Source: Myxococcota bacterium
GTDB taxonomy: Bacteria > Myxococcota_A > UBA9160 > UBA4427
Assembly (NCBI GenBank): GCA_965223565.1
Contig: CBDCWV010000016.1
Location: 828,518-892,517 of the forward strand
Length of the DNA: 64,000 bases
Direction of reading: 5' to 3'
Made by a program: the position numbers and the translations under genes. Each line of letters opens with the position of its first letter. The stretch's first letter is position 1. Positions 768-12,638 of the stretch are shown piece by piece. The notes below the pieces were generated by a model. The model was not told the origin of the DNA. It saw only the letters and a list, made by a program, of their open reading frames with translations, and did no database searches.

Positions 768-1559
768 ATGACCGCAGCGCCCGACGAGGCACTCTCACTC
801 GATGGAACGATCGCCTTGGTCACGGGTGCCGCGGGCGGGATCGGACGCGCGAGCGCACTGGCGTTGGCGACGCGCGGCGCGCGCGTCGTCGCGACGGATC
901 TCGCGTCGGCACGCGAACGGCTCGACGAGACGATCGAGACGATTCGAGAGGCGGACGGTAGCGCCGCGCCAATCCATACCGACCTCTCGTCGCGGTCGGC
1001 GATCGAGGGGCTGGTCGCTCGCGCGCAGAGCGAATTCGGTCCGATCGACGCCCTCGTGAATGCCGCCGGCATCCACTCCTATCCGTCACCGCTACTCGAG
1101 ATGCGCGAGGCCGATTGGGATCGGGTCTTCGACGTGAACCTGAAGGGCTGCCTCGCGCTCTGCCAACGCCTGATCCCATCCATGGCCGAGCGGGGAGGAG
1201 GCTCGATCGTGAACATCGCGTCGGACAGCGCGTTCGACGTCATTCCGGGCGAAGGGGCCTACGGCATCTCGAAGATGGGATTGACGAAGATCACGTCGTA
1301 CCTCGCGAAGGAGACCGCGGGAACCGGCGTGCGGCTGAACGCGATCGCGCCCGGCTGGGTCAAGACCGAGATGACACGCCCGTTCTGGGAGGACCAGGAT
1401 GAGCTCGAACGAGCACTCGGCGAGATCCCGTTACGCCGGATTGCCGATCCGTCGGAGATCGCGAACGTCGTCGTCTTCTTGATGTCGAGCCTGGCGAGCT
1501 ACGTCCATGGACATTGCATCGTCGTCGACGGCGGACGCGTCGCGGGCCTGCCCGCCTGA
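768..1559 (+). CDS. SDR-family oxidoreductase (FabG-like short-chain dehydrogenase)
   Basis: ORF 768..1559 carries TGAAGGIGRA (the TGxxxGxG NAD(P) motif), NAAG and YGISKMG (the YxxxK catalytic motif). The SD-like GGAAGGAAG lies upstream of the ATG at 768. Confidence 0.9.
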   Translation: MTAAPDEALSLDGTIALVTGAAGGIGRASALALATRGARVVATDLASARERLDETIETIREADGSAAPIHTDLSSRSAIEGLVARAQSEFGPIDALVNAAGIHSYPSPLLEMREADWDRVFDVNLKGCLALCQRLIPSMAERGGGSIVNIASDSAFDVIPGEGAYGISKMGLTKITSYLAKETAGTGVRLNAIAPGWVKTEMTRPFWEDQDELERALGEIPLRRIADPSEIANVVVFLMSSLASYVHGHCIVVDGGRVAGLPA

Positions 1560-1609
1560 CGCATCCGTGCCGCCGAGGAGATCGCGCGCTCCCCGCTAGG
1601 TTCATCCCG

Positions 1610-4600
1610 ATGACACCCGCTCTCTCGCGCCTCAACAAGCGACTGGTCCTTCTCGGAGTCTGGATCACGGTCCTGGGTGTGACGTTCTGGGCCGGGTCCC
1701 GCTATCCGTCGCTGAACGCCAAGGCGTTCATGGGCGGCGAGACGATGCTCGAAGATCCGCTGAGCTTCGAGGCGTTGGTCGAGCTCCAGGAAGGCGATTC
1801 GGCGGGGCGGCTGATCCTGCTGACCACGATCAACTGGATCCACACGAACCTCCGCGGAATGGCCTTCGGTCTCCTGCTGGGCGCCTCGTTGCTCTCCGCC
1901 ATCCAGCTGATCCATCGACGTTCCGTCCAGTCCGGCGTCGGAAACACACTGCTCGGGATGGCGATCGGCGCGCCCCTGGGTGTCTGCGTCAACTGCGCCG
2001 CACCCGTCGCCAAGGGGATCCACGACGGCGGTGCTCGCCTCGAGACGACGCTCGCGGCCATGGTCAGCTCCCCGACGCTCAATGTCGTGGTGCTCACGAT
2101 GTCGTTCTCGATCCTGCCGACCTATCTGGCCGCCACGAAGCTCGCGTACTCCCTCCTCTTCATCCTGCTCGTGATCCCGCTCCTGTCCCGGACCGTCTTC
2201 GAGAGCGAGCGCGCGCAGACGATCGAGAACGCGACCTGCGACCTCTCGACCTCGCTACCGGGCGACGCGGCAGAGAGCTGGCGAGACGCGCTCATCGCAA
2301 CCCTGCGCGGCTTCCTGGCCAGCCTCTGGTTCATCGTCCGAAAGACGCTGCCGCTCATGCTGCTCGCCGGGCTCCTCGGAGCGACGATGGCGACACTCGT
2401 ACCGCTCACCTCGCTCGCGAGCGTCGAATCGAGTGCCCTGGCGGCGGTCCTGCTCGCCGTCGTCGGCCTGCTCCTTCCCGTGCCGATGGCCTTCGACGTT
2501 GTGCTCGCGGCCGTGCTCCTCGGTGCCGGCATGCCGATCCCCTACGTGATGATCCTGCTCTTCGTGCTCGGCATCTTCAGCTGCTATTCCGCGTTCATCG
2601 TCGCCACGACGATCTCTCCGCGCGTCGCGTTCGTCATGAGCGCGCTGTTGATCGGGCTGGGACTCCTCGCCGGCCTGACGGCGGACGGCATTCACGAATC
2701 CGAGCTTCGTGGGATGATCGCGGGTGCCAGCGCGACCCGGAGCAACACGGAGCAAACCCTTCTCGACGGTCCCCGCGGCATATTGCCGCGCCTTCCGGAT
2801 ACCACGAAACGCAGTCGCGACGACACGCCTCCACCGCGCGCCCACGTCGTGATCGAATCCGTGGCCCATCGACCGCGACGCTCCGAGGGCCCGACGCCGT
2901 TCACCCGTCGCGACGGAGACTCGCTGGGGCTGATTGCGCCGATGGACTTCTCGGTCGAAGATTTCTGGCCCCCCTTCTACAACGCACGCGGCATCGCCTC
3001 GGCCGATTTCGATAACGACGGCTGGCAGGACCTCGTCGTCGCAACGGAGAATGGACCGCGCCTCTACCGAAACGAGGAGGGCCTGCGATTCGAGAGGCGA
3101 CCGTTCGACTCGCCCGACGTCGAGCAACTCGATGCGTTCGTCGTCGCCCCCGCCGATCTCGATGACGACGGATGGCTCGATCTGCTGGTCACGACCTACC
3201 GCAGCGGGAGCTACGTCCTCCTCAACGAGCGAGGCCGGATCGAAGCCAGTCCCCTGTATCGCATGCCCGCCCGCGACGAGATCATCAGTCATGCCGTCTC
3301 GTTCGGAGACGTCGACCGGGACGGCGATCTCGACGCGGCGGTCGGAAACTGGTTCTTCGGGGGGATGCGCGGCAGCACGGCGCTCCCCGCGAACGCCGAG
3401 AACTTTCTCTACCGGAACGTCGCGGGCAGCTTCGAGCGCGAAATCCTAGCGGGCATCGCCGGCGAGACACTCGCGCTCCTGCTCTCCGACTGGACAGGGG
3501 ACGGCGTGCTCGATTTGATCATGGGCAACGACTTCGATCCTCCCGACGTCTACTCGATCGGGCTCGGCGACGGCCGCTTTCGACAGGTCTCGAGCGAAGA
3601 TCGTCTGATCCCGATCTCCACGGCGGCGACGATGAGCGTCGACACCGCAGACATCGACAACGACCTGGTCCCCGAGATCTACCTCACCAATATCGCGATG
3701 CGTCCGAGTGATGTGGGATCTGCCGGCGTCGGACCGCGGCTCCCGGGCTATTGCCGAGACATCGAGAACGAGCAGGTACGCGCCGCATGCCGAGCGAATC
3801 TGCCGATCCGCAGGCGATTCGCGTACGGGGGTGCCCATCAACCGTCCCACCTCCGCGAGTGCGGACGAATCGAAGACGAGACGGAGCGGGTCCATTGCCA
3901 GGGGATGATGCTGATGAAGACGGCGCTCCGAGAGCGGGATGCATCACTCTGTGAGCATATTCCACTCGCACATGAACGCGGGCGCTTTCTCTGCGACATC
4001 TTCTTCTGGCCCGGCGTCGACGTTCCGGAGCGCCTGTCCCGAACCGCGATCCCTCAGACTCGCGGCCGCAACGTCCTGCTCGCACGACGCGGTCCGAGCT
4101 GGCAGAACCGAGCGCGGGAGCTCGGCGTCGAGAACACCGGATGGAGCTGGGCAGGCAAATTCGCGGACCTCGACGACGACGAATGGAAGGACCTCTACGT
4201 GGTGAACGGAACCTGGCTCAAGCCGACGCGCGTTCCCTCGAACGTCTACTTCCACAATCTCGCGGGCGAACGATTCAGGAACGAGACGAGAGACTCGGGC
4301 CTCGAAGACCACCTGATCGTCTCGGCCTATACCTACTCGGATCTCGACAACGACGGAGACCTCGACATCGTCACGAACTCGGTGAACGGCCCCTTCCGCT
4401 TCTACCGGAACAACGACTCGACGCATCACGCCATCACGATCGAGCTGAGAGATCGCCTCGGCAACCGATTCGGACTCGGCTGCAAGATCACGATCTTCTA
4501 CGGGGCCGAGGCCGAACGGCGACAGATCGTCGAGATCAAGTCGGGCGCGGGCTTCCTGTCCCACGATCCGCCGATCGCCCACTTCGGGCTCGGGCGATTC

Positions 4601-4867
4601 GAGTCCGTCGGTCGAATCGAGGTCGATTGGTCGACCGGCGAGCGAACGATCCACGCGGGACCGTTCCGTGCCAACCGTCACTACCGCCTCGAACGACGCG
4701 CCGACCGCAGCTCGCGAAGCGCTTCCAGATCCTCGGCCAGCCGCGGCGCCGCGAGCCCGCCGCGTTCGACGGCGCGTTCCAACGCCCGCTCGGCTTCGTC
4801 GAGCTCGCCGCGCGCGAAATGCGCGACCGAGATCGCACCGAGCTCCGCCTGTGTCGGTCGACGGTAG
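1610..4867 (+). CDS. Fusion protein: N-terminal multi-TM 'predicted permease' (ArsP/DUF318-like) plus C-terminal FG-GAP/VCBS beta-propeller with an ASPIC/UnbV-like end (CRTAC1-family-like)
   Basis: The ATG at 1610 (MTPALSRLNKRLVLLGVWITVL...) lies inside ORF 1514..4867. The N-terminal ~400 aa are hydrophobic and carry GVCVNCAAPVAKG...SSPTLNVVVL. The C-terminal part has repeated Ca-loop motifs DFDNDGWQDLVV, DLDDDGWLDLLV, DVDRDGDLDAAVGNW, DLDDDEWKDLYVVNG and DLDNDGDLDIV. It ends with EIKSGAGFLSHDPPIAHFGLG. The reading frame is continuous. Confidence 0.8.
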   Translation: MTPALSRLNKRLVLLGVWITVLGVTFWAGSRYPSLNAKAFMGGETMLEDPLSFEALVELQEGDSAGRLILLTTINWIHTNLRGMAFGLLLGASLLSAIQLIHRRSVQSGVGNTLLGMAIGAPLGVCVNCAAPVAKGIHDGGARLETTLAAMVSSPTLNVVVLTMSFSILPTYLAATKLAYSLLFILLVIPLLSRTVFESERAQTIENATCDLSTSLPGDAAESWRDALIATLRGFLASLWFIVRKTLPLMLLAGLLGATMATLVPLTSLASVESSALAAVLLAVVGLLLPVPMAFDVVLAAVLLGAGMPIPYVMILLFVLGIFSCYSAFIVATTISPRVAFVMSALLIGLGLLAGLTADGIHESELRGMIAGASATRSNTEQTLLDGPRGILPRLPDTTKRSRDDTPPPRAHVVIESVAHRPRRSEGPTPFTRRDGDSLGLIAPMDFSVEDFWPPFYNARGIASADFDNDGWQDLVVATENGPRLYRNEEGLRFERRPFDSPDVEQLDAFVVAPADLDDDGWLDLLVTTYRSGSYVLLNERGRIEASPLYRMPARDEIISHAVSFGDVDRDGDLDAAVGNWFFGGMRGSTALPANAENFLYRNVAGSFEREILAGIAGETLALLLSDWTGDGVLDLIMGNDFDPPDVYSIGLGDGRFRQVSSEDRLIPISTAATMSVDTADIDNDLVPEIYLTNIAMRPSDVGSAGVGPRLPGYCRDIENEQVRAACRANLPIRRRFAYGGAHQPSHLRECGRIEDETERVHCQGMMLMKTALRERDASLCEHIPLAHERGRFLCDIFFWPGVDVPERLSRTAIPQTRGRNVLLARRGPSWQNRARELGVENTGWSWAGKFADLDDDEWKDLYVVNGTWLKPTRVPSNVYFHNLAGERFRNETRDSGLEDHLIVSAYTYSDLDNDGDLDIVTNSVNGPFRFYRNNDSTHHAITIELRDRLGNRFGLGCKITIFYGAEAERRQIVEIKSGAGFLSHDPPIAHFGLGRFESVGRIEVDWSTGERTIHAGPFRANRHYRLERRADRSSRSASRSSASRGAASPPRSTARSNARSASSSSPRAKCATEIAPSSACVGRR

Positions 4868-6399
4868 GAATGCACGAGCTCGATATAGCGCCCCGCCGAC
4901 TCGTAGACGAAGCCCCTGAAGGCCGGGTCGTCCGCAATCGACGCGAACGCCGAGTCGAGCAGGAGCGTCTGAAAATGATCCCGCCCGAGGGTCGCGGCTG
5001 CTCGAAGCTGCGCCACGGCGCGAGCCGCATCGCCGGACCGCGCGGCACGGCGTGCCTCGAGCATCAGAGCCGATCGACCATTGGGAAACCGCGTGGCCGA
5101 ATCCGCCGAGAGAAGCGATTGATCGGTCCACAGACGAGCGCGCTGCGCGGCGGTCACGCCGAGCAGGGTCGCGAGCAGGAGGACGAGCACGCCGGACGCC
5201 CGTCGTGCAGCCATTCCGGACGACCCGCTCGGGAGCGCGCCGAGGCTCGAGCACTTCGCTTTTGCGTCGCGCAACAGGAACAGCGTCCCGCCGATCAGCC
5301 CAGGCAGCAGGAAATAGAGGTATCGATTCGCGATCGGGTAGCTGAATGGAACCAGCTGGGAGACCGGCCCGAACGCGAATGCTGCGCCCAGCCAGTAGGC
5401 CGCTTCGACCTGCCGACGCCGCAACGAGATGGCGATCCGCCAGAGAAAGAACGCCGCGAGCGGGATCGACGAGAGCACCCAGGGATCGAAGATCGACCCA
5501 ACGGCGTCATGCTCCTGCGCATGGGCGATTCCGACCGTCGTGAAGGCCATCACGAGGTAATGCACACCGATCGAAGCGATCGTGTAGAGATGCGTCCAGA
5601 CGTCCGCGTAGGCGGCCACGACGACCGAGCCACGCGGATGGATGGCCGAGTATTGCGGAACGCTGTAGAGGAGGAACGAGACGAGCCATCCAGCGAGCCA
5701 GCCCCACGCCGAACGCGTCCGAGGCCAGGCCTCGCAGCGACTCCAGACGAGGGCTGCAGCGACCGGAAGCGCCATGATGGCAGACGCCTTCGTGAGGAGC
5801 CCCATTCCGAAGAGCAGGGTCGACCAGGCGGGATGGCGTGGCAGCAGCAGGAGGGATCCGAGGCAAAAGGCGAGTGCACCACTGGTCTTCAGCTGGGAGA
5901 TCCAGGCCACCGCCTCGACGTTTCCCGGATGCACCAGGAAGAGAAGACCTCCGAGCATGGCCGGCGTCGACCCGGCGCCCGTCGCGGCCAGCAGACGCGC
6001 GAGGAGCGCTGCGTTAAGCGCATGGATCACGACGTTGATCGCGTGATAGCCGAAGGTGTCTTCGGCGAAGAGCGACCGCTCGAGCGCATGGGCGAGCAAC
6101 GTGAGCGGGGCGTAGTTCGCGCCCTGGAACCGCGCCTCGCCGGTCGGGTCGAAGATCGCGACGATGGATTCGAACGAGAGCGTCTCGACCCAGGGATTCA
6201 TCACGAGATAGATCAGATCATCCGAGAGAAAGGGACCGTCGAGCGCGGGTAGGTAGATCGCGAAGGCCAGGAACGAGAAGACGAGCCAGAGACCCGAGAT
6301 CGGCGCGGACGTCGTGATCGGCTCCGAATCGGACGGGACGCGCCCCGCCCCGGACGACACGCGCTCGCCCCGAGTCACCGATTCGCTACTGCGCGACAT
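4681..6399 (-). CDS. Polytopic membrane protein with C-terminal TPR repeats (TMTC/PMT-like GT-C glycosyltransferase candidate)
   Basis: ORF 4681..6399. The N-terminal ~400 aa hold many TM segments, with GPFLSDDLIYLV in the first loop (a DD/DE acidic motif as in PMT/TMTC-type GT-C enzymes). The C-terminal ~150 aa are helical TPR-like (ARRAARSGDAARAVAQLRAAATLG...YRRPTQAELGAISVAHFARGELDEAERALERAV). Confidence 0.7.
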   Translation of the reverse strand: MSRSSESVTRGERVSSGAGRVPSDSEPITTSAPISGLWLVFSFLAFAIYLPALDGPFLSDDLIYLVMNPWVETLSFESIVAIFDPTGEARFQGANYAPLTLLAHALERSLFAEDTFGYHAINVVIHALNAALLARLLAATGAGSTPAMLGGLLFLVHPGNVEAVAWISQLKTSGALAFCLGSLLLLPRHPAWSTLLFGMGLLTKASAIMALPVAAALVWSRCEAWPRTRSAWGWLAGWLVSFLLYSVPQYSAIHPRGSVVVAAYADVWTHLYTIASIGVHYLVMAFTTVGIAHAQEHDAVGSIFDPWVLSSIPLAAFFLWRIAISLRRRQVEAAYWLGAAFAFGPVSQLVPFSYPIANRYLYFLLPGLIGGTLFLLRDAKAKCSSLGALPSGSSGMAARRASGVLVLLLATLLGVTAAQRARLWTDQSLLSADSATRFPNGRSALMLEARRAARSGDAARAVAQLRAAATLGRDHFQTLLLDSAFASIADDPAFRGFVYESAGRYIELVHSYRRPTQAELGAISVAHFARGELDEAERALERAVERGGLAAPRLAEDLEALRELRSARRSRR

Positions 6400-7147
6400 A
6401 GGCCCCGTCGACCGCGATCGCCTGGCCGGTCACGAACGAAGCTTCTTCCGAGCACAACCAGGCCACGGCGTTCGCGACCTCTTCGGGCTCACCGAAGCGC
6501 CCAACCGGTTGGCGAGCGATCACCTGCGACCGCAGCTCCGGCGCGTTCGCGAGGAACGCCTCCTGCATCGGGGTCATGATCTCCCCCGGACAGACCGCGT
6601 TGATCCGAACGCCCTGCTTGGCGCATTCGAGCGCGGCCGTCCTCGTCAGGCCAACGACGGCGTGCTTGCTCGGCGCGTAGGCCGGAAGCCTGCTGTCGTA
6701 GCCGACGAGACCGGCGACCGACGCCATGTTGACGATCGACCCGTGGCCCTGATCGAGCATCTGCCTCAGCTCGTACTTCATGCAGAGCCAGACGCCCTTG
6801 AGGTTGACCTCGATGACCCGATCCCAGGTCTCCTCCGTGCATTCGACCAGGGTCGCTTCGTCGCCCGTGATGCCGGCGTTGTTGCAGGCGTAGTCCAACC
6901 TCCCGAACTCGCTCAATGTCCGCTCGACCATTCGCTCGACAGACGATGCCTCCGTCACATCCACACGGATCGAGCATGCGCGGCCACCGTTGCGAACGAT
7001 CATCGCCGTCGTCTCGCTCGCGCTCGCGCTATCAACGTCTGTTACCGCGACGGCGGCGCCCCTGCGCCCGAATCCGATCGATACGGCGCGGCCGATCCCC
7101 GAGCCCGCCCCCGTTACGACCGCCACTCTCTCGCGCAAGTCGATCAT
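6386..7147 (-). CDS. SDR-family oxidoreductase
   Basis: MIDLRERVAVVTGAGSGIGRA..., NNAG and YAPSKHAVVGLT (YxxxK). The start codon is the complement of 7145-7147. It overlaps the start of the downstream gene by 14 nt. Confidence 0.9.
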   Translation of the reverse strand: MIDLRERVAVVTGAGSGIGRAVSIGFGRRGAAVAVTDVDSASASETTAMIVRNGGRACSIRVDVTEASSVERMVERTLSEFGRLDYACNNAGITGDEATLVECTEETWDRVIEVNLKGVWLCMKYELRQMLDQGHGSIVNMASVAGLVGYDSRLPAYAPSKHAVVGLTRTAALECAKQGVRINAVCPGEIMTPMQEAFLANAPELRSQVIARQPVGRFGEPEEVANAVAWLCSEEASFVTGQAIAVDGAYVAQ

Positions 7148-7270: not shown

Positions 7271-8674
7271 ATGGGTGCCATGACGAAATACAGAATACGC
7301 GAACGAGCCATGACGTTCCTGGTCATCTCGGCAATGTCGCTGGTCGCCTGTGATCGACCTGCGACTTCGGAGCGACCAGACGTCGTACTCGTGGTCGTCG
7401 ACACGCTTCGCGCCGACCACCTGCGTGCCTACGGCTTCGAATACGACACGAGCCCGAACTTCGATTCACTCGCGTCCGAGAGCGTCTTGTGGGAGCGAGC
7501 CGTAGCGGCGAGCTCGCTCACGGCCCCGTCGCACGCGAGCATGATGACGTCGCGATTCGTGCGCGGACACTCGATCGGGTCGCGGAACGGGAGCAGCCGC
7601 TTGGTGGGACGCGACACGCTCGCAACCCGTTTTCGTCGTGCCGGATACGCGACCGCGGCGTTCGTGAGCAACTACGTCCTCGGGCTTCGAATCGGTCTCG
7701 ACCAGGGCTTCGACGTATACGACGCAGACCTGCCCACGGCCGAAGCGAGTCGGGAGACGGTCTTCGAGCGGATCGCCGAACAGACGACGGACGCGGCACT
7801 CGCATGGCTCGAGGAGCAGCCGGATACTCCCTATTTTCTCTGGGTCCATTATCAGGATCCCCACGGACCCTACACGCCTCCCTCGCCGCACGACGTCTCT
7901 TTCCCCGACCTCGCGCAAGCGGATGGACGCGAGCTGCGGGTCCTGCGCGACCACTCGGGGCGCGGCGGGATCCCGCGCTACCAGGCGCTTCGCGGGATCG
8001 CGTCGCTCGGCGGCTACCGCCGCGCCTACGCCGGTGAGATCGAGTACTTCGATCGCTCTCTCGGGCGTCTGCTTCGAGCGATCGATCGACGCAGCCGAGA
8101 CACGATCGTGCTGCTCACGGCGGACCATGGCGAGTCGATGGGCGAAGGGGATCGCTACTTCTGCCATGGACACGCGACGACGCTCGATCAGGTCCACGTA
8201 CCTCTATTGATCCGCGCACCCGGCCTCGACCCGGGCCGACGTCGCGACGTCGTGCACCACGTCGATATCCTGCCCACGCTGCTCGAGCTCGCAGGACTCG
8301 AGCCGGTCGAGGAGGCCAGTGGCTTGGCGCTCGGCCCCTTCGCGCGCGACGGTCGTCCACTCCCTGCACGCTTCCTCTTCAGCGACAGTGTTCGCGACGC
8401 GACGGTGTTCCACGGCGATCGGATCGTGCGAATCGAGTCCGTCGCCGACCAGCAAGCCGTCCGAAGCAAAGCGCGCAAGACGGCCTACGCGTGGACCGAT
8501 CGCGATGTCGAGCATCCGGACGACTCGGATCGATCGATGGAGCGCGCGATTCGGGACTACCTGGGGACACGCGAGGCGATCGAGCCGATTCTCGGCGTAC
8601 TCGATCCGCGTGCGAGATCCCGGCTGCGCGCGCTCGGCTATCTCGCGCCCGACGTTGGTGATCGCGGCGACTGA
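7271..8674 (+). CDS. Sulfatase-fold (alkaline-phosphatase superfamily) lipoprotein with a non-canonical T-A-P-S-H active-site motif
   Basis: This is the in-frame part of ORF 6314..8674. Candidate ATGs lie at 7271, 7280 and 7310. The lipobox is FLVISAMSLVAC. Sulfatase motifs are present: VVLVVVDTLRADHL, SSLTAPSHASMMTSRF, LWVHYQDPHGPY and LLTADHGESMGE. The upstream ~950 nt of the ORF is antisense to the SDR gene. Confidence 0.85.
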   Translation: MGAMTKYRIRERAMTFLVISAMSLVACDRPATSERPDVVLVVVDTLRADHLRAYGFEYDTSPNFDSLASESVLWERAVAASSLTAPSHASMMTSRFVRGHSIGSRNGSSRLVGRDTLATRFRRAGYATAAFVSNYVLGLRIGLDQGFDVYDADLPTAEASRETVFERIAEQTTDAALAWLEEQPDTPYFLWVHYQDPHGPYTPPSPHDVSFPDLAQADGRELRVLRDHSGRGGIPRYQALRGIASLGGYRRAYAGEIEYFDRSLGRLLRAIDRRSRDTIVLLTADHGESMGEGDRYFCHGHATTLDQVHVPLLIRAPGLDPGRRRDVVHHVDILPTLLELAGLEPVEEASGLALGPFARDGRPLPARFLFSDSVRDATVFHGDRIVRIESVADQQAVRSKARKTAYAWTDRDVEHPDDSDRSMERAIRDYLGTREAIEPILGVLDPRARSRLRALGYLAPDVGDRGD

Positions 8675-9031
8675 TCTCCGCAGCTCCCCTTATCGTCGCC
8701 GCGCCTCGTCGCCGCGCCGGCGTCGGCGTTCGAGGTCGGACTCGTGGTGCGAAGTCGGCGTCGCTGTCGAAACGCTGAAGCCGAGAATGCCGTTCGAGTC
8801 TGCCCGCGGAACCCTGCTACGGGGTGCGCTATGTCTGCTCTGTCCTTTGCTCGCTCAATCGAACGCCTACGCGGGAAGTGCGACGAACGACGGCCTCTCA
8901 GTCCGCGTCCTCGCCGATGGCATCGAAATTGCGAACACGGGTTCGATCGTTGCAAGTGGAACGCTCGACGGCCCACCCCGCTGTATCCGACGGATCGGTA
9001 CGACTGGGATGCCGAGGTACCCACGCCGGCC

Positions 9032-9067
9032 CGTCGTTGAGGACTCTTCGATCGAGCCTCAACGACG
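9032..9067. terminator. Stem-loop (11-bp perfect stem) between convergent genes; terminator-like, without a U-tract
   Basis: CGTCGTTGAGG (9032-9042) pairs with CCTCAACGACG (9057-9067) across a 14-nt loop. It lies 32 nt past the stop of the minus-strand gene 9099..9413 and downstream of the + gene that ends at 8674. Confidence 0.35.
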
Positions 9068-9098
9068 ACCGGACTCGGCTGCCTGGATCGACTGGTTA

Positions 9099-9413
9099 CT
9101 AGTCGACGGTCGAATAGAAGGCCGTCGACATGCTCTCGACAGCGGGGTCGTCGGAGGACTTCGCCGCGCGCTCCATCAGTGCTTTGTAGGCCGGAGCGGA
9201 TTGGATCTTCTCTGCGGCGGCACCGAACTGCTTCCAGTCTTCGTACTCACTCACGAGCGAGAGAGTACCCGGGTTGTCCCCCGTGACGGGCCGAAGCAAT
9301 CGGACATTCACGCCCTGCTTCTCGAGGATCTCCTTCATCTCGGTCACGCCGTCGCGAACTCGCTGGTACTTTCCGGGCAAGGCTGTCGTCGTCTGAACTG
9401 CGGTGATGCTCAT
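9099..9413 (-). CDS. Small hypothetical protein (104 aa), possibly a ferredoxin-like alpha+beta fold
   Basis: MSITAVQTTTALPGKYQRVRDGVTEMKEILEKQGVNVRLLRPVTGDNPGTLSLVSEYEDWKQFGAAAEKIQSAPAYKALMERAAK... A strong SD (AAAGGAG) lies 8 nt upstream of the ATG (complement of 9411-9413). The composition is non-Arg-rich, unlike the upstream extension of ORF 9099..9650. Confidence 0.65.
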   Translation of the reverse strand: MSITAVQTTTALPGKYQRVRDGVTEMKEILEKQGVNVRLLRPVTGDNPGTLSLVSEYEDWKQFGAAAEKIQSAPAYKALMERAAKSSDDPAVESMSTAFYSTVD

Positions 9414-9894
9414 TGATCGTACTCCTTTGATGCCCCCCAGATCGATTCGGTGCAACACGCGTGCCGACGGAGAATTCGCCAGGGTGCTGCCCGAAGCGAC
9501 CGCCAACCTCGCCGAATCCGGTCGATATTCTCGTCGCGGCGGAGGGCAGTGACCGTTCGCCGCGGTAGGCCTCGAGGGAAAAGTGTGGCGGTTCGCCGCG
9601 CACTGTGGTCCAGGTGCAGTTCGAACCATCGCTCTGCGGCGATGTGACACACTATATGGTGTCGTCGCCCCGGAGGCCTACGCTCGCTGCCAGCCGATAG
9701 GCGGGGAAATAGACCGAATCGAGACCGACCGAGCCCGGCCCGACCGAACGGGCCGGGCCCGATCCGTGATCTACGCTCTCGCCGTCGCCTCGTCGAAGGC
9801 CTCACCCAGCCGTCGTCGATCTGCCCGCCGAGACTACGACACTGCCCGAATGGAGATCGCGCGAGCTGGCTCGCGGACCGACAGGGAGAACACG

Positions 9895-10356
9895 ATGAAG
9901 CTCAAGATCAACGGCACGACGCACGAGATCGACGCACCCGCCGATACGCCCCTGCTGTGGGTACTGCGTGACCGCTTACGGCTCACAGGAACCAAATTCG
10001 GCTGCGGTATCGCACAGTGCGGCGCGTGCACGGTCCACGTCGACGGTCGGGCGCGACGGGCCTGCGTGACACCCATCGCCGCTGTCGAGGGGGCGGACGT
10101 CCGCACGATCGAGGGCGTCTCCGGCGAGACGGCTGCGGCCGTTCAGGAGGCGTGGGTCGCGCTGGACGTTCCGCAGTGCGGCTACTGCCAATCGGGCCAG
10201 ATCATGTCGGCGATCGCGCTGCTCGACGCAAACGGCGAGCCGAGCGACGTCGACATCGCGAATGCGATGTCCGGCAATCTCTGTCGATGCAACTGCTATG
10301 TGCGGATTCGGCAGGCCGTCCACGACGCGGCCGAGGCGAAGCGGGGTCGGGCATGA
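9895..10356 (+). CDS. (2Fe-2S)-binding small subunit of a molybdopterin oxidoreductase (isoquinoline oxidoreductase / aldehyde dehydrogenase alpha-type)
   Basis: [26 protein letters not shown]...[12 protein letters not shown]...CGYCQSG...CRCNCY gives both 2Fe-2S Cys clusters. The ATG is at 9895 with GGGAGA upstream. The stop overlaps the next start (ATGA at 10353-10356). Confidence 0.9.
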
Positions 10357-12638
10357 GCGCAGGACGAGACGTGGAGGACATCGAGATTCGACAGCTGGAC
10401 GAGGGCTGGACACGGCGCGACTTCCTCGGTCGGAGCCTGATGGGGAGCGGCGCGCTCGTGCTCGGCGTCGGGCTCTCGGCCTGTGCATCCGGCGACGAAC
10501 GGGCTCCGCAGTTGACGCGCCTACGCGAAGCGGGGTCGACCCCGCCCGGGGCGGGGCCCGAGTTCGCACCGGACGCCTTCATCCGAATCGGTCGCGACGA
10601 CACGATCACGATCCTTTCGAAGCACCTCGAGATGGGGCAGGGACCGTATACGGGGCTCGCGACGTTGATCGCCGAGGAGCTCGACGCCGACTGGTCGAAG
10701 GTCCGCGCGATTGCGGCCCCTGCGGACGACGCCCTCTACGCAAACACCTTCCGCGGCGTCCAGGGGACGGGCGGATCGACGGCGATCGCGAACTCCTACG
10801 ACCAGATGCGTATGGCGGGGGCGGCAGCCCGCCATATGCTCGTCGAAGCCGCCGCGGAGACGTGGGGCGTGCCGGCCGAGCAGATCACGGCTTCGAAGGG
10901 CGTGCTGAGCCATCGTGCGAGCGGACGACGAGGTCTCTTCGGCGAGTTCGTCGAGGCCGCCGCTACGCGTCCCGTGCCGAAGTCGCCGCGCCTCAAGTCG
11001 CCGGAGGAGTTCGTTCTGATCGGCCACGAGGCACCTCGGCTCGATTCGGCAGCGAAGAGCGACGGGTCGGCCCAATTCGCGATCGACGTCTACCGCGACG
11101 ACATGCTCGTCGTGATGATCGAGCGGCCGACGGTCTTCGGCGCCCGTGTGAAGCGGGTCCGGTCCGACGCGGCACTCGCCGTGCCGGGCGTAGTCGCCGT
11201 GCGAACGCTCTCCCAAGGCGTGGCGGTCTACGCCGAGGAGACCTGGGCGGCGATTCAGGGTCGGCGGGCGCTCGAAGTCGAGTGGGACGAATCGGCGGGT
11301 GAGACGCGATCGAGCGAGGAGCTCTTCGCGACGTTCCGGAAGGCGGCGGGCGAGGCCGACGTCGTGGCGGCGGAGCGCGGCTCGGCGGCGACCGCGGTCG
11401 CAGAGGCCGCGGCGCGCACCGACGTGCACGTGGTCGAGGCCGAATACGCCTTTCCGTTCCTCGCCCATGCGATGATGGAGCCGCTCGACGGGTTGATCGA
11501 GGTCGATCCGGAGGGCGACGGTCGGGCCGTGCTCGTGACGATCGGGAGTCAGGGCCCGGGTCGCGACCGCCCAGCGATCGCGAAGCGACTGGGTCTACCG
11601 ATCGAGCAGGTACGCTTCGACATCACCTACGCGGGCGGGAGCTTCGGACGCCGGTCGCAATTCGACGCACAGTTCCCGATCGAGCTCGCCGACGTCTTCA
11701 CGCACCAGCCCGGCGCCCCCGCCGACCGCCGACCGACGAAGCTCCTCTGGACGCGCGAAGACGACATCCGAGGTGGCTACTACCGCCCGATGGTCGTCCA
11801 TCGCCTTCGCGGCGCGATCAGCCAGTCGGGTGAGCTCGTCGGCTGGGACCAATCGATCGCAGCCCAGAGCTTCTTCCCCGAGGCGATCCGCGCGCGGCTC
11901 GCGAAGAACGGCGTCGACCCGACGGTCGTCGAAGGTGCGTCGAATCTCGCCTACGCGACGGCAAACCTGAGCGTACGACAGCGCCTCGTCGAAACCGGAG
12001 TCCCCGTGCTCTGGTGGCGTTCGGTCGGCCACACGCATACGGGCTTTGCCGTCGAGGCGTTCATCGACGAGCTGCTCGAGCGCGCCGGTCGTGATCCCGT
12101 CGAGGGGCGCCTCGCGCTCTTGGCCGATCACCCGCGCCATCGAGGCGTCCTCGAACGCGCCGCCGAGATCGCCGGCTGGGGGCGCGCGCCGGATTCCGGT
12201 CGCGCGTTCGGCGTCGCGGTTCACGAGTCCTTCAGCAGCTTCGTGGCCCAGATCGTCGAGATCTCGCTCGAGCGATCGCCCGTCCGTCGGCCACGGGTCC
12301 ATCGCGTCTGGTGCGCCGTCGATTGCGGCGTACCGGTCAACCCGAACGTGATTCGTGCTCAGATGGAGGGGGGCATCGGCTTCGGCCTCGGCGCCGCGCT
12401 CTACAGCGAGATCCGGCTCGGCGCCGGCGGTCGCGTCATCGAGGGCAACTTCGACGCCTATCGCTCGCTGCGCCTGGACGACATGCCCGAGGTCGAGGTC
12501 GCGATCCTGCCATCGACTGAAAAGCCCACCGGCGTCGGAGAGCCCGGCGTGCCGCCGATTGCACCGGCCGTCGCGAACGCCTGGCGTCGCCTGACCGGCG
12601 AGCGTGTGTCGCAGCTACCCTTCGTTCGTTCGACCTGA
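10353..12638 (+). CDS. Molybdopterin-binding large subunit (xanthine dehydrogenase family; IorB-type) with a Tat signal
   Basis: [45 protein letters not shown] carries a twin-arginine motif. The body carries [49 protein letters not shown] and [21 protein letters not shown]. It is translationally coupled to the 2Fe-2S subunit. Confidence 0.9.

Follow-up and report, generated by a model that had tools for sequence, protein, structure and literature searches.

A YraQ/ArsP-type permease and a CRTAC1-like propeller joined in one protein of a Myxococcota bacterium

Do a polytopic permease and an extracytoplasmic beta-propeller, encoded in one reading frame, form one working protein? This question is raised by a gene at positions 1610–4867 of the window, a stretch of 64,000 nucleotides (nt) of contig CBDCWV010000016.1 (positions 828,518 to 892,517; GenBank assembly GCA_965223565.1) from a Myxococcota bacterium. 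A first-pass annotation, made from the DNA alone, had described its product as a fusion of a 'CxxC' permease with an FG-GAP/ASPIC propeller of the CRTAC1 type. We are confident that the product is an inner-membrane protein of two modules, a permease of the ArsP_1/YraQ family and a CRTAC1-like propeller in the periplasm, which act together. The fuller explanation, in which the modules work as one unit, the substrate is thiophilic and likely to be moved outwards, and the propeller lies at the periplasmic mouth of the permease, has, in our estimate, a probability of about 0.55.

The open frame on the + strand extends from 1514 to 4867, and the ATG at 1610, which gives a product of 1085 amino acids (aa), lines up with the N-termini of the homologues in the alignment. 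The GC content of this DNA is ~66%, and long spurious frames are abundant in the list of open reading frames (ORFs). Homologues with 39–79% identity span ~94% of the protein, and the 1610–4867 frame is therefore not a chance ORF of high-GC DNA. Four Pfam families were found in the product, each above its curated cut-off: ArsP_1 (PF03773, aa 114–356, 38.2 bits against a cut-off of 32.3), FG-GAP_3 (112.9 bits over four stretches), FG-GAP (48.5 bits) and UnbV_ASPIC (aa 955–1016, 43.6 bits). The permease motifs quoted in the first-pass annotation were located at aa 124–136 (GVCVNCAAPVAKG) and aa 153–162 (SSPTLNVVVL). With Pfam families on both halves and full-length homologues in hundreds of genomes, the single-polypeptide fusion is genuine. 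Its features, together with the gene junctions of the split relatives discussed below, are listed in Table 1.

Table 1. Features of the fusion gene in the window and junctions between separate permease and propeller genes in split relatives
Feature	Position in window (nt)	Strand	Basis or remark
Whole coding sequence: permease, linker, propeller, ASPIC domain, tail	1610..4867	+	1085 aa + stop; ORF list, Pfam, full-length homologues
Permease module, aa 1–360, ArsP_1/YraQ-type	1610..2689	+	Pfam, E. coli YraQ alignment, AlphaFold2 (AF2) secondary structure, charge counts
Transmembrane helix (TM) 1, aa 10–29, predicted inside to outside	1637..1696	+	AF2 helix 10–29; Lys/Arg (K/R) at N-terminal end
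Periplasmic loop L1, aa 30–82, motifs SRYP..K(A)xMGG..LEDPLSFE and NW..TN..GM	1697..1855	+	Invariant columns; conservation 0.71
Half-helix pair 3a/3b, aa 109–139, G-x-P-L-G-V-C126-V-N-C129-A-A-P at break	1934..2026	+	Helix break 124–126; both flanks K/R-rich
Half-helix pair 7a/7b, aa 276–305, invariant L-P-V-P-x-A-F-D296 at break	2435..2524	+	Invariant columns; flanks without K/R
Linker, aa 361–410, without hydrophobic segment, low conservation	2690..2839	+	Conservation 0.22; pLDDT <50 at aa 378–385 and 397–406
CRTAC1-like FG-GAP beta-propeller, aa 411–938, seven Ca-loop-type motifs	2840..4423	+	Pfam, motif scan, Foldseek
Helical cysteine (Cys)-rich insert in propeller, aa 701–815	3710..4054	+	AF2 helices across 721–812; Cys conservation
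UnbV_ASPIC beta-sandwich, aa 939–1029	4424..4696	+	Pfam; PDB sequence match to CRTAC1 over aa 909–1012; homologue C-termini
Non-conserved Ser/Arg/Ala-rich tail, aa 1030–1085, and stop	4697..4867	+	Absent from homologues; pLDDT ~30
Split junction, L004/L005			TAG then immediate ATG; propeller starts with signal peptide (MVLRSTLILAFALSAASAHSWA...)
Split junction, L066			TAG then immediate ATG; propeller starts with signal peptide
Split junction, L006			12-nt gap; propeller starts with signal peptide
Split junction, L086			48-nt gap; propeller starts with signal peptide
Split junction, L091			4-nt overlap; propeller starts with signal peptide
Split junction, L087			66-nt gap; propeller starts with lipobox (LFLAGC)

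The same domain order is widespread. Among the 120 best homologues listed, 116 carry all four Pfam families, and their lengths are mostly ~1000–1070 aa. A scan of one genome per species found relatives encoded in at least 407 species genomes, and the 80 best loci listed include cultured isolates and complete chromosomes (Maricaulis maris, Marinicauda salina, Mameliella alba, Tateyamaria and Litorimonas) as well as Gammaproteobacteria/Woeseiaceae, Planctomycetota and Myxococcota metagenome-assembled genomes (MAGs). In one Myxococcota MAG (L048), two full-length fused paralogues lie in tandem (3943–7077 and 7944–11153). The permease part alone, used as query against 1.84 billion cluster representatives (50% identity), gave 878 matches at E<=0.001, of which 402 had E<=1e-30; among the 150 clusters listed for this query, most are 1000–1100 aa long. 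Database names are generic ('FG-GAP-like repeat-containing protein', 'RNA-binding protein', 'YraQ (UPF0718)'), and literature searches on ArsP and UPF0718 permeases with FG-GAP repeats, on YraQ permeases and on CRTAC1 proteins found no paper describing the fusion. The combination of the permease with a CRTAC1-like propeller is thus undescribed in the searched literature, both modules being of known kinds. The first-pass annotation had taken the architecture to be undescribed, on the understanding that it should not prove common and already annotated; it is common, with hundreds of protein clusters, but its annotation is no more than generic, and the claim of novelty is weakened accordingly.

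The permease half has the marks of its family (ArsP_1/YraQ, also UPF0718 or DUF318), whose members include E. coli YraQ, C. jejuni ArsP, Shewanella SO_0444 and Clostridioides SaoE. Besides exceeding the Pfam threshold for PF03773, it carries the Cys motif with A-A-P, the P-x-L-N motif and an acidic residue in the second repeat. In an alignment, the Cys motif MCTCCAAPVAAG of E. coli YraQ pairs with VCVNCAAPVAKG of the window protein, NPVLN with SPTLN and IPTAAE with VPMAFD, and the patterns C-x-x-C-A-A-P-V-A-x-G, P-x-L-N and P-x-A-x-[DE] are common to both proteins, as are an N-terminal TM helix and a two-fold repeat of broken helices. The motifs aligned with YraQ are all invariant in the 31 homologous sequences over which conservation, Cys residues and charges were counted. 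The CxxC pair, named in the first-pass annotation, is not peculiar to the fusion protein: YraQ has C-T-C-C-A-A-P at the equivalent position. The Cys motif reads CVNC in the window protein, CTCC in YraQ and CSC in SO_0444 and SaoE, in which it is the most conserved feature (bioRxiv 10.1101/2022.07.06.499078). Unlike YraQ, the window protein has a long conserved periplasmic loop (L1, with LEDPLSFE); unlike the ArsP_1/YraQ family in general, it has a periplasmic extension of ~670 aa; and, unlike ArsP, its gene has no ars or metal operon context. By the Pfam threshold and the shared motifs, the window protein is a member of the broad ArsP_1/YraQ family; the profile scores given below place it outside the subfamilies of SO_0444 and SaoE.

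The AF2 model of the full-length protein (mean predicted local distance difference test, pLDDT, 79.4; predicted template-modelling score, pTM, 0.81) agrees with a permease-only model, and its pTM only hints at a defined arrangement of the domains. In these models, TM1 is followed by two similar sets of helices, each made up of two long TMs and, between them, a pair of half-helices separated by a break and then a second broken helix. The codons of C126 and C129 lie at 1985–1996, and both residues are present in 31/31 sequences. The K+R counts are positive at the N-terminus, in loop L2 (+2.9) and in the stretch after half-helix 3b, and nearly zero in loops L6 and L7. These observations suggest an N-in, C-out orientation of the fused protein, with C126-V-N-C129 at the tip of a hairpin re-entering from the cytoplasmic side and LPVPxAFD296 at the tip of a second one re-entering from the periplasmic side; the permease would then consist of TM1 followed by an inverted repeat of (3 TM + hairpin) x2. 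From a cytoplasmic N-terminus, the chain would pass through TM1, the periplasmic L1, TM2, the cytoplasm-side hairpin with C126/C129, the broken TM4 and TM5, and then through a cytoplasmic loop, TM6, the periplasm-side hairpin with LPVPxAFD296, the broken TM8 and TM9, to end in the periplasm. A C-out orientation fits the export signals on split propellers, the six conserved Cys residues of the propeller insert and the Cys-rich linker of long variants. A DsbD/CcdA-like electron relay, in which a membrane CxxC serves a Cys-rich periplasmic domain, was considered and rejected: a single hairpin holds both Cys residues, the other contains no Cys, and their motif is that found throughout the YraQ/ArsP family.

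The propeller half is equally recognisable. Its best PDB match, both by sequence and by fold, is murine CRTAC1 (cartilage acidic protein 1) 9etn (phmmer E 1e-14; Foldseek 9etn_A E 4.6e-17, TMt 0.65), followed in Foldseek by PVL lectin and integrin alpha propellers. As in CRTAC1, an FG-GAP propeller with Dx[DN]xDG-type loops is followed by an UnbV_ASPIC domain, after which no Pfam domain was found in the window protein. The first-pass annotation had counted at least five Ca-binding loops; the motif scan found six strict D-x-[DN]-x-[DN] motifs and one variant (DWTGDG), seven in total, and by this motif the loops are putatively of the Ca-binding type. The invariant residues of the propeller are mostly the Asp and Gly of these loops and the disulfide Cys of the insert. 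Unlike soluble CRTAC1, the window propeller is tethered to a polytopic permease and has a helical insert of ~115 aa with six Cys residues (715, 727, 751, 763, 781 and 795), each present in 30–31 of the 31 sequences. The Foldseek alignment is ~90 columns longer than the CRTAC1 chain, which fits an insertion as far as an overall column count can tell. Export of the propeller, as in the CRTAC1 family, is indicated by the signal peptide or lipobox of split relatives, by the charge counts that predict the C-out topology and by the six conserved Cys residues.

Evidence that the two modules belong together comes from the relatives in which they are separate. Both fused and split versions of the permease-propeller pair occur; in at least six distinct relatives, the halves are adjacent, co-directional genes, and the linker position of the fusion is the site of the stop, start and signal peptide. 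The linker, for which the first-pass annotation had given ~70 aa and which measures about 50–70 aa, shows the lowest conservation in the protein (0.22 vs ~0.6 for both domains). In five of the six split relatives, a signal peptide precedes the conserved PFTRxEG start of the propeller module; the propeller gene of the sixth (L087) was identified through its FG-GAP Pfam matches and not through PFTRxEG. One split permease (L005) reaches an ArsP_1 score of 48.2 bits. In a rough neighbour-joining tree of the permease domains, built without support values, split forms occupy at least three positions, one split clade being sister to the window clade; fusion or fission has therefore been repeated while the partnership was kept. 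Since the split halves stay adjacent and the propeller then bears a signal peptide or lipobox of its own, we conclude that the modules are functionally coupled and that the propeller is periplasmic, which bears out the first-pass annotation on both points. The pairing may resemble the 'two-component permease' formed by a PF03773 permease and a TIGR03943/DUF1980 protein.

Loop L1 may be where the two modules meet. Its first part (aa 30–60) is the most conserved stretch of the protein (0.71), and E. coli YraQ has no L1. Two split forms with a propeller neighbour, L005 and P0121, retain the motif; in P0162 and P0188, which are split forms of greater distance, it is degenerate; and its LEDPLSF part is absent from three stand-alone permeases without a propeller neighbour. 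This correlation, from a small sample, suggests that L1 is a contact surface for the propeller. The relatives without a propeller gene nearby (L088, L089/L090 and L092/L093) are basal in the rough tree. For one of these stand-alone permeases, P0244, the same 274-aa protein, which matches no Pfam family, precedes the permease in two independent contigs (L089, 3046–3870; L090, 827–1651) and may be a different partner. In three longer relatives (P0152, P0195 and P0260; 1276–1310 aa), permease and propeller are linked by a Cys-rich helical repeat of ~250 aa, which looks like an expanded version of the Cys-rich insert of the propeller.

We therefore favour the following explanation. Module 1 (aa 1–360) would be a secondary-transporter-like permease with an extra N-terminal TM helix, its chain ending outside the cytoplasm. 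Module 2 (aa 411–1029) would be a disulfide-containing propeller with Ca-binding-type loops and an UnbV_ASPIC sandwich, held in the periplasm on a variable linker. By analogy with family members, the substrate of the permease would be thiophilic, for instance a soft metal or a metalloid, and would more likely be carried outwards, as by ArsP and SO_0444: ArsP is a methylarsenite efflux permease according to a passage of PMC7229686 that cites Chen et al. 2015, and SO_0444 is needed under Zn/Cu stress (PMC3219624). At the periplasmic mouth, the propeller would accept, donate or gate the substrate, with L1 as the likely contact surface between the two modules.

Several results weigh against this explanation. 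Substrate and direction are assigned by family analogy, and the profiles of the two subfamilies scored far below their cut-offs (SO_0444 family Cu/Zn efflux transporter NF033936, 20.3 bits vs 300; SaoE efflux transporter NF040736, 19.3 bits vs 325). The hairpin topology has secondary structure and charge counts as its sole basis. A Foldseek search of the PDB with the permease model returned nothing significant, the best matches being VcINDY, Pho90, ASBT and CitS at E>=0.1, so that similarity to solved elevator-type hairpin transporters (DASS, GltPh, CitS and others) did not reach significance in that comparison; a sequence search of the PDB with the permease part found no solved structure. Among the invariant residues of the propeller, there is no obvious Cys/His metal site. 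No ars gene, metal-resistance gene or metal regulator was found in the neighbourhood of the gene in the window, and the gene contexts of its relatives show no metal theme beyond a single CorA gene (L081). Finally, a gene cluster in Alphaproteobacteria speaks for a role at the envelope or surface and not for detoxification.

This cluster is the main ground for the most serious rival, in which the propeller binds a macromolecule of the periplasm or cell surface, such as a glycan or a secreted fibre protein, and the whole protein serves at the inner membrane as a sensor or platform by which transport is gated by or coupled to this ligand, not as a detoxifying exporter. At 56 of the 81 loci, every one of them alphaproteobacterial (L008, L010, L011, L016, L018, L025, L055, L056 and about 48 others), the gene has clustered neighbours encoding two Sel1-repeat proteins, a secreted protein of ~155 aa and another of ~397 aa, which are kept together although gene order and strand vary. 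Genes of the type II secretion system (T2SS) are frequent in it (GspG in 29 loci, the prepilin peptidase PilD in 27, GspD in 10), and pseudopilins occur too. The ~397-aa protein has weak tail-fibre matches (phrog_9942 at 2e-8; PDB 8ond at E 0.002) and is also weakly similar to Bdellovibrio bd2133; the smaller secreted protein matched nothing in Pfam, NCBIfam or PHROGs, and the other proteins of the cluster gave generic Sel1 and weak tail-fibre matches only. PVL lectin and integrin alpha, which the propeller resembles in structure, are FG-GAP propellers that bind ligands and carbohydrates, and the window clade retains a polytopic membrane protein with a TPR-like region and a sulfatase nearby. 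However, the cluster is clade-specific, being absent from the window clade, L001 and the gammaproteobacterial, planctomycete and myxococcal loci, and the invariant transporter motifs argue that transport is still essential. We regard an envelope role as possible, if tentative. More doubtful still is a wider proposal that the fused and split proteins form an obligate bipartite class, in which a thiol-hairpin permease and a Ca-binding propeller pass a substrate between them and which, in marine Alphaproteobacteria, would belong to a T2SS-linked set of genes for building or modifying a secreted, tail-fibre-like surface protein. Some Rhodobacteraceae loci also contain small candidate sulfotransferases.

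The remaining rivals are progressively less likely. The propeller might be a tethered substrate-binding protein that passes a periplasmic solute to the permease for import. As in the binding-protein-dependent ABC and TRAP systems, a membrane transporter is here genetically coupled to an exported protein, a likeness that, with the conservation of the periplasmic loop L1, would suit uptake. Unlike in those systems, the partner is a beta-propeller with no known solute-binding fold and an energy-coupling subunit is absent; CRTAC1-type propellers are not known as solute-binding proteins; the conserved Cys pair appears to lie on a hairpin facing the cytoplasm, as expected if the substrate is picked up there; and the characterised members of the family are exporters (PMC7229686, PMC3219624). 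Uptake is thus unlikely. A loss of transport that would leave the permease-like part as a simple anchor of the propeller in the inner membrane found no positive evidence and, though conceivable, is very improbable: the permease core is as conserved as the propeller (0.62 vs 0.61), all 31 of 31 sequences, with identities down to 39%, keep the hairpin motifs unchanged, and split propellers have their own signal peptide or lipid anchor, yet the permease gene stays adjacent. A frameshift or mis-assembly joining two genes in the window contig, to which the two-gene versions in some relatives might lend colour, can be dismissed, because the same uninterrupted fusion is found across hundreds of independent genomes and metagenomes, including complete chromosomes and cultured isolates such as M. 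maris, M. salina and M. alba, and because the linker in the window, unlike the junction of true split forms, has no hydrophobic signal-peptide-like stretch.

The surroundings of the gene in the window tell little about its role. It lies downstream of a short-chain dehydrogenase/reductase (SDR) gene, from which it is separated by a 50-nt gap, and converges on a gene at 4681–6399 (−) encoding a 572-aa polytopic membrane protein with a TPR-like C-terminal region and an N-terminal 'PFLSDD' motif, beyond which are a second SDR gene and then a sulfatase gene. The membrane part of the 572-aa protein matches no Pfam family, and the protein gave only weak TPR and TPR_END_plus matches; it may resemble GT-C/TMTC-type glycosyltransferases. 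In a 63%-identical relative (L081/L082), genes for the membrane and TPR protein (53% identity), for an SDR and for a sulfatase are kept nearby in a changed arrangement, the membrane and TPR orthologue being divergent upstream of the target orthologue and not convergent downstream. In a 51%-identical relative (L083/L084), an SDR gene is nearby, without the membrane and TPR protein or the sulfatase beside it. The annotated neighbours within ~20 kb downstream in the window are SDRs, the sulfatase, a molybdenum (Mo) enzyme, a NUDIX protein and a flavin monooxygenase, with no ars genes such as would mark an ArsP operon in the strict sense, and none was found in L081–L084 either. The Mo enzyme, at 9583–12638 (+), is of the xanthine-dehydrogenase/aldehyde-oxidase type, with a [2Fe-2S] subunit (Fer2/Fer2_2) and a molybdopterin-binding subunit (MoCoBD_1/2), and is followed on the minus strand by the NUDIX and flavin-monooxygenase-like genes; these genes are apparently unrelated to the fusion. 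The window genes up to ~24 kb are metabolic and uninformative.

The 3' end of the fusion gene overlaps the 3' end of the convergent gene by 187 nt. The conserved part of the protein stops at ...YRLERR (aa 1029), and the 56-aa tail that follows (nt 4697–4864) is missing from the closest relative, L001 (79% identity), and from every other homologue; L001 terminates 7 residues past the conserved ...ERR. The tail may have arisen by a recent loss of the stop codon, or it may be due to a sequencing error. L001 (CAZETS010000058.1), which shares its gene neighbourhood with the window, is labelled 'uncultured Spirochaetaceae bacterium'; the other relatives all belong to Proteobacteria, Planctomycetota or Myxococcota, and the taxonomic label of this bin may be wrong.

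The finding holds no surprise of principle, transporters with tethered extracytoplasmic partners being well known. The ArsP_1/YraQ family is large, however, and few of its members have an assigned substrate. A subfamily that is nearly always fused to or beside a periplasmic propeller gives a handle on how YraQ/ArsP permeases work: the pairing points to a defined periplasmic face and to a partner protein, and the natural fused and split versions are available for structural work. It also gives a sizeable set of bacterial propellers of the CRTAC1 type a place in the cell, beside a transporter on the outer side of the inner membrane. If the obligate bipartite class proposed above were real, the YraQ/UPF0718 family would gain a role beyond metal and metalloid detoxification. 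The family is common in marine Alpha- and Gammaproteobacteria, and its role may therefore be of importance to how metals, metalloids or envelope components are handled at sea.

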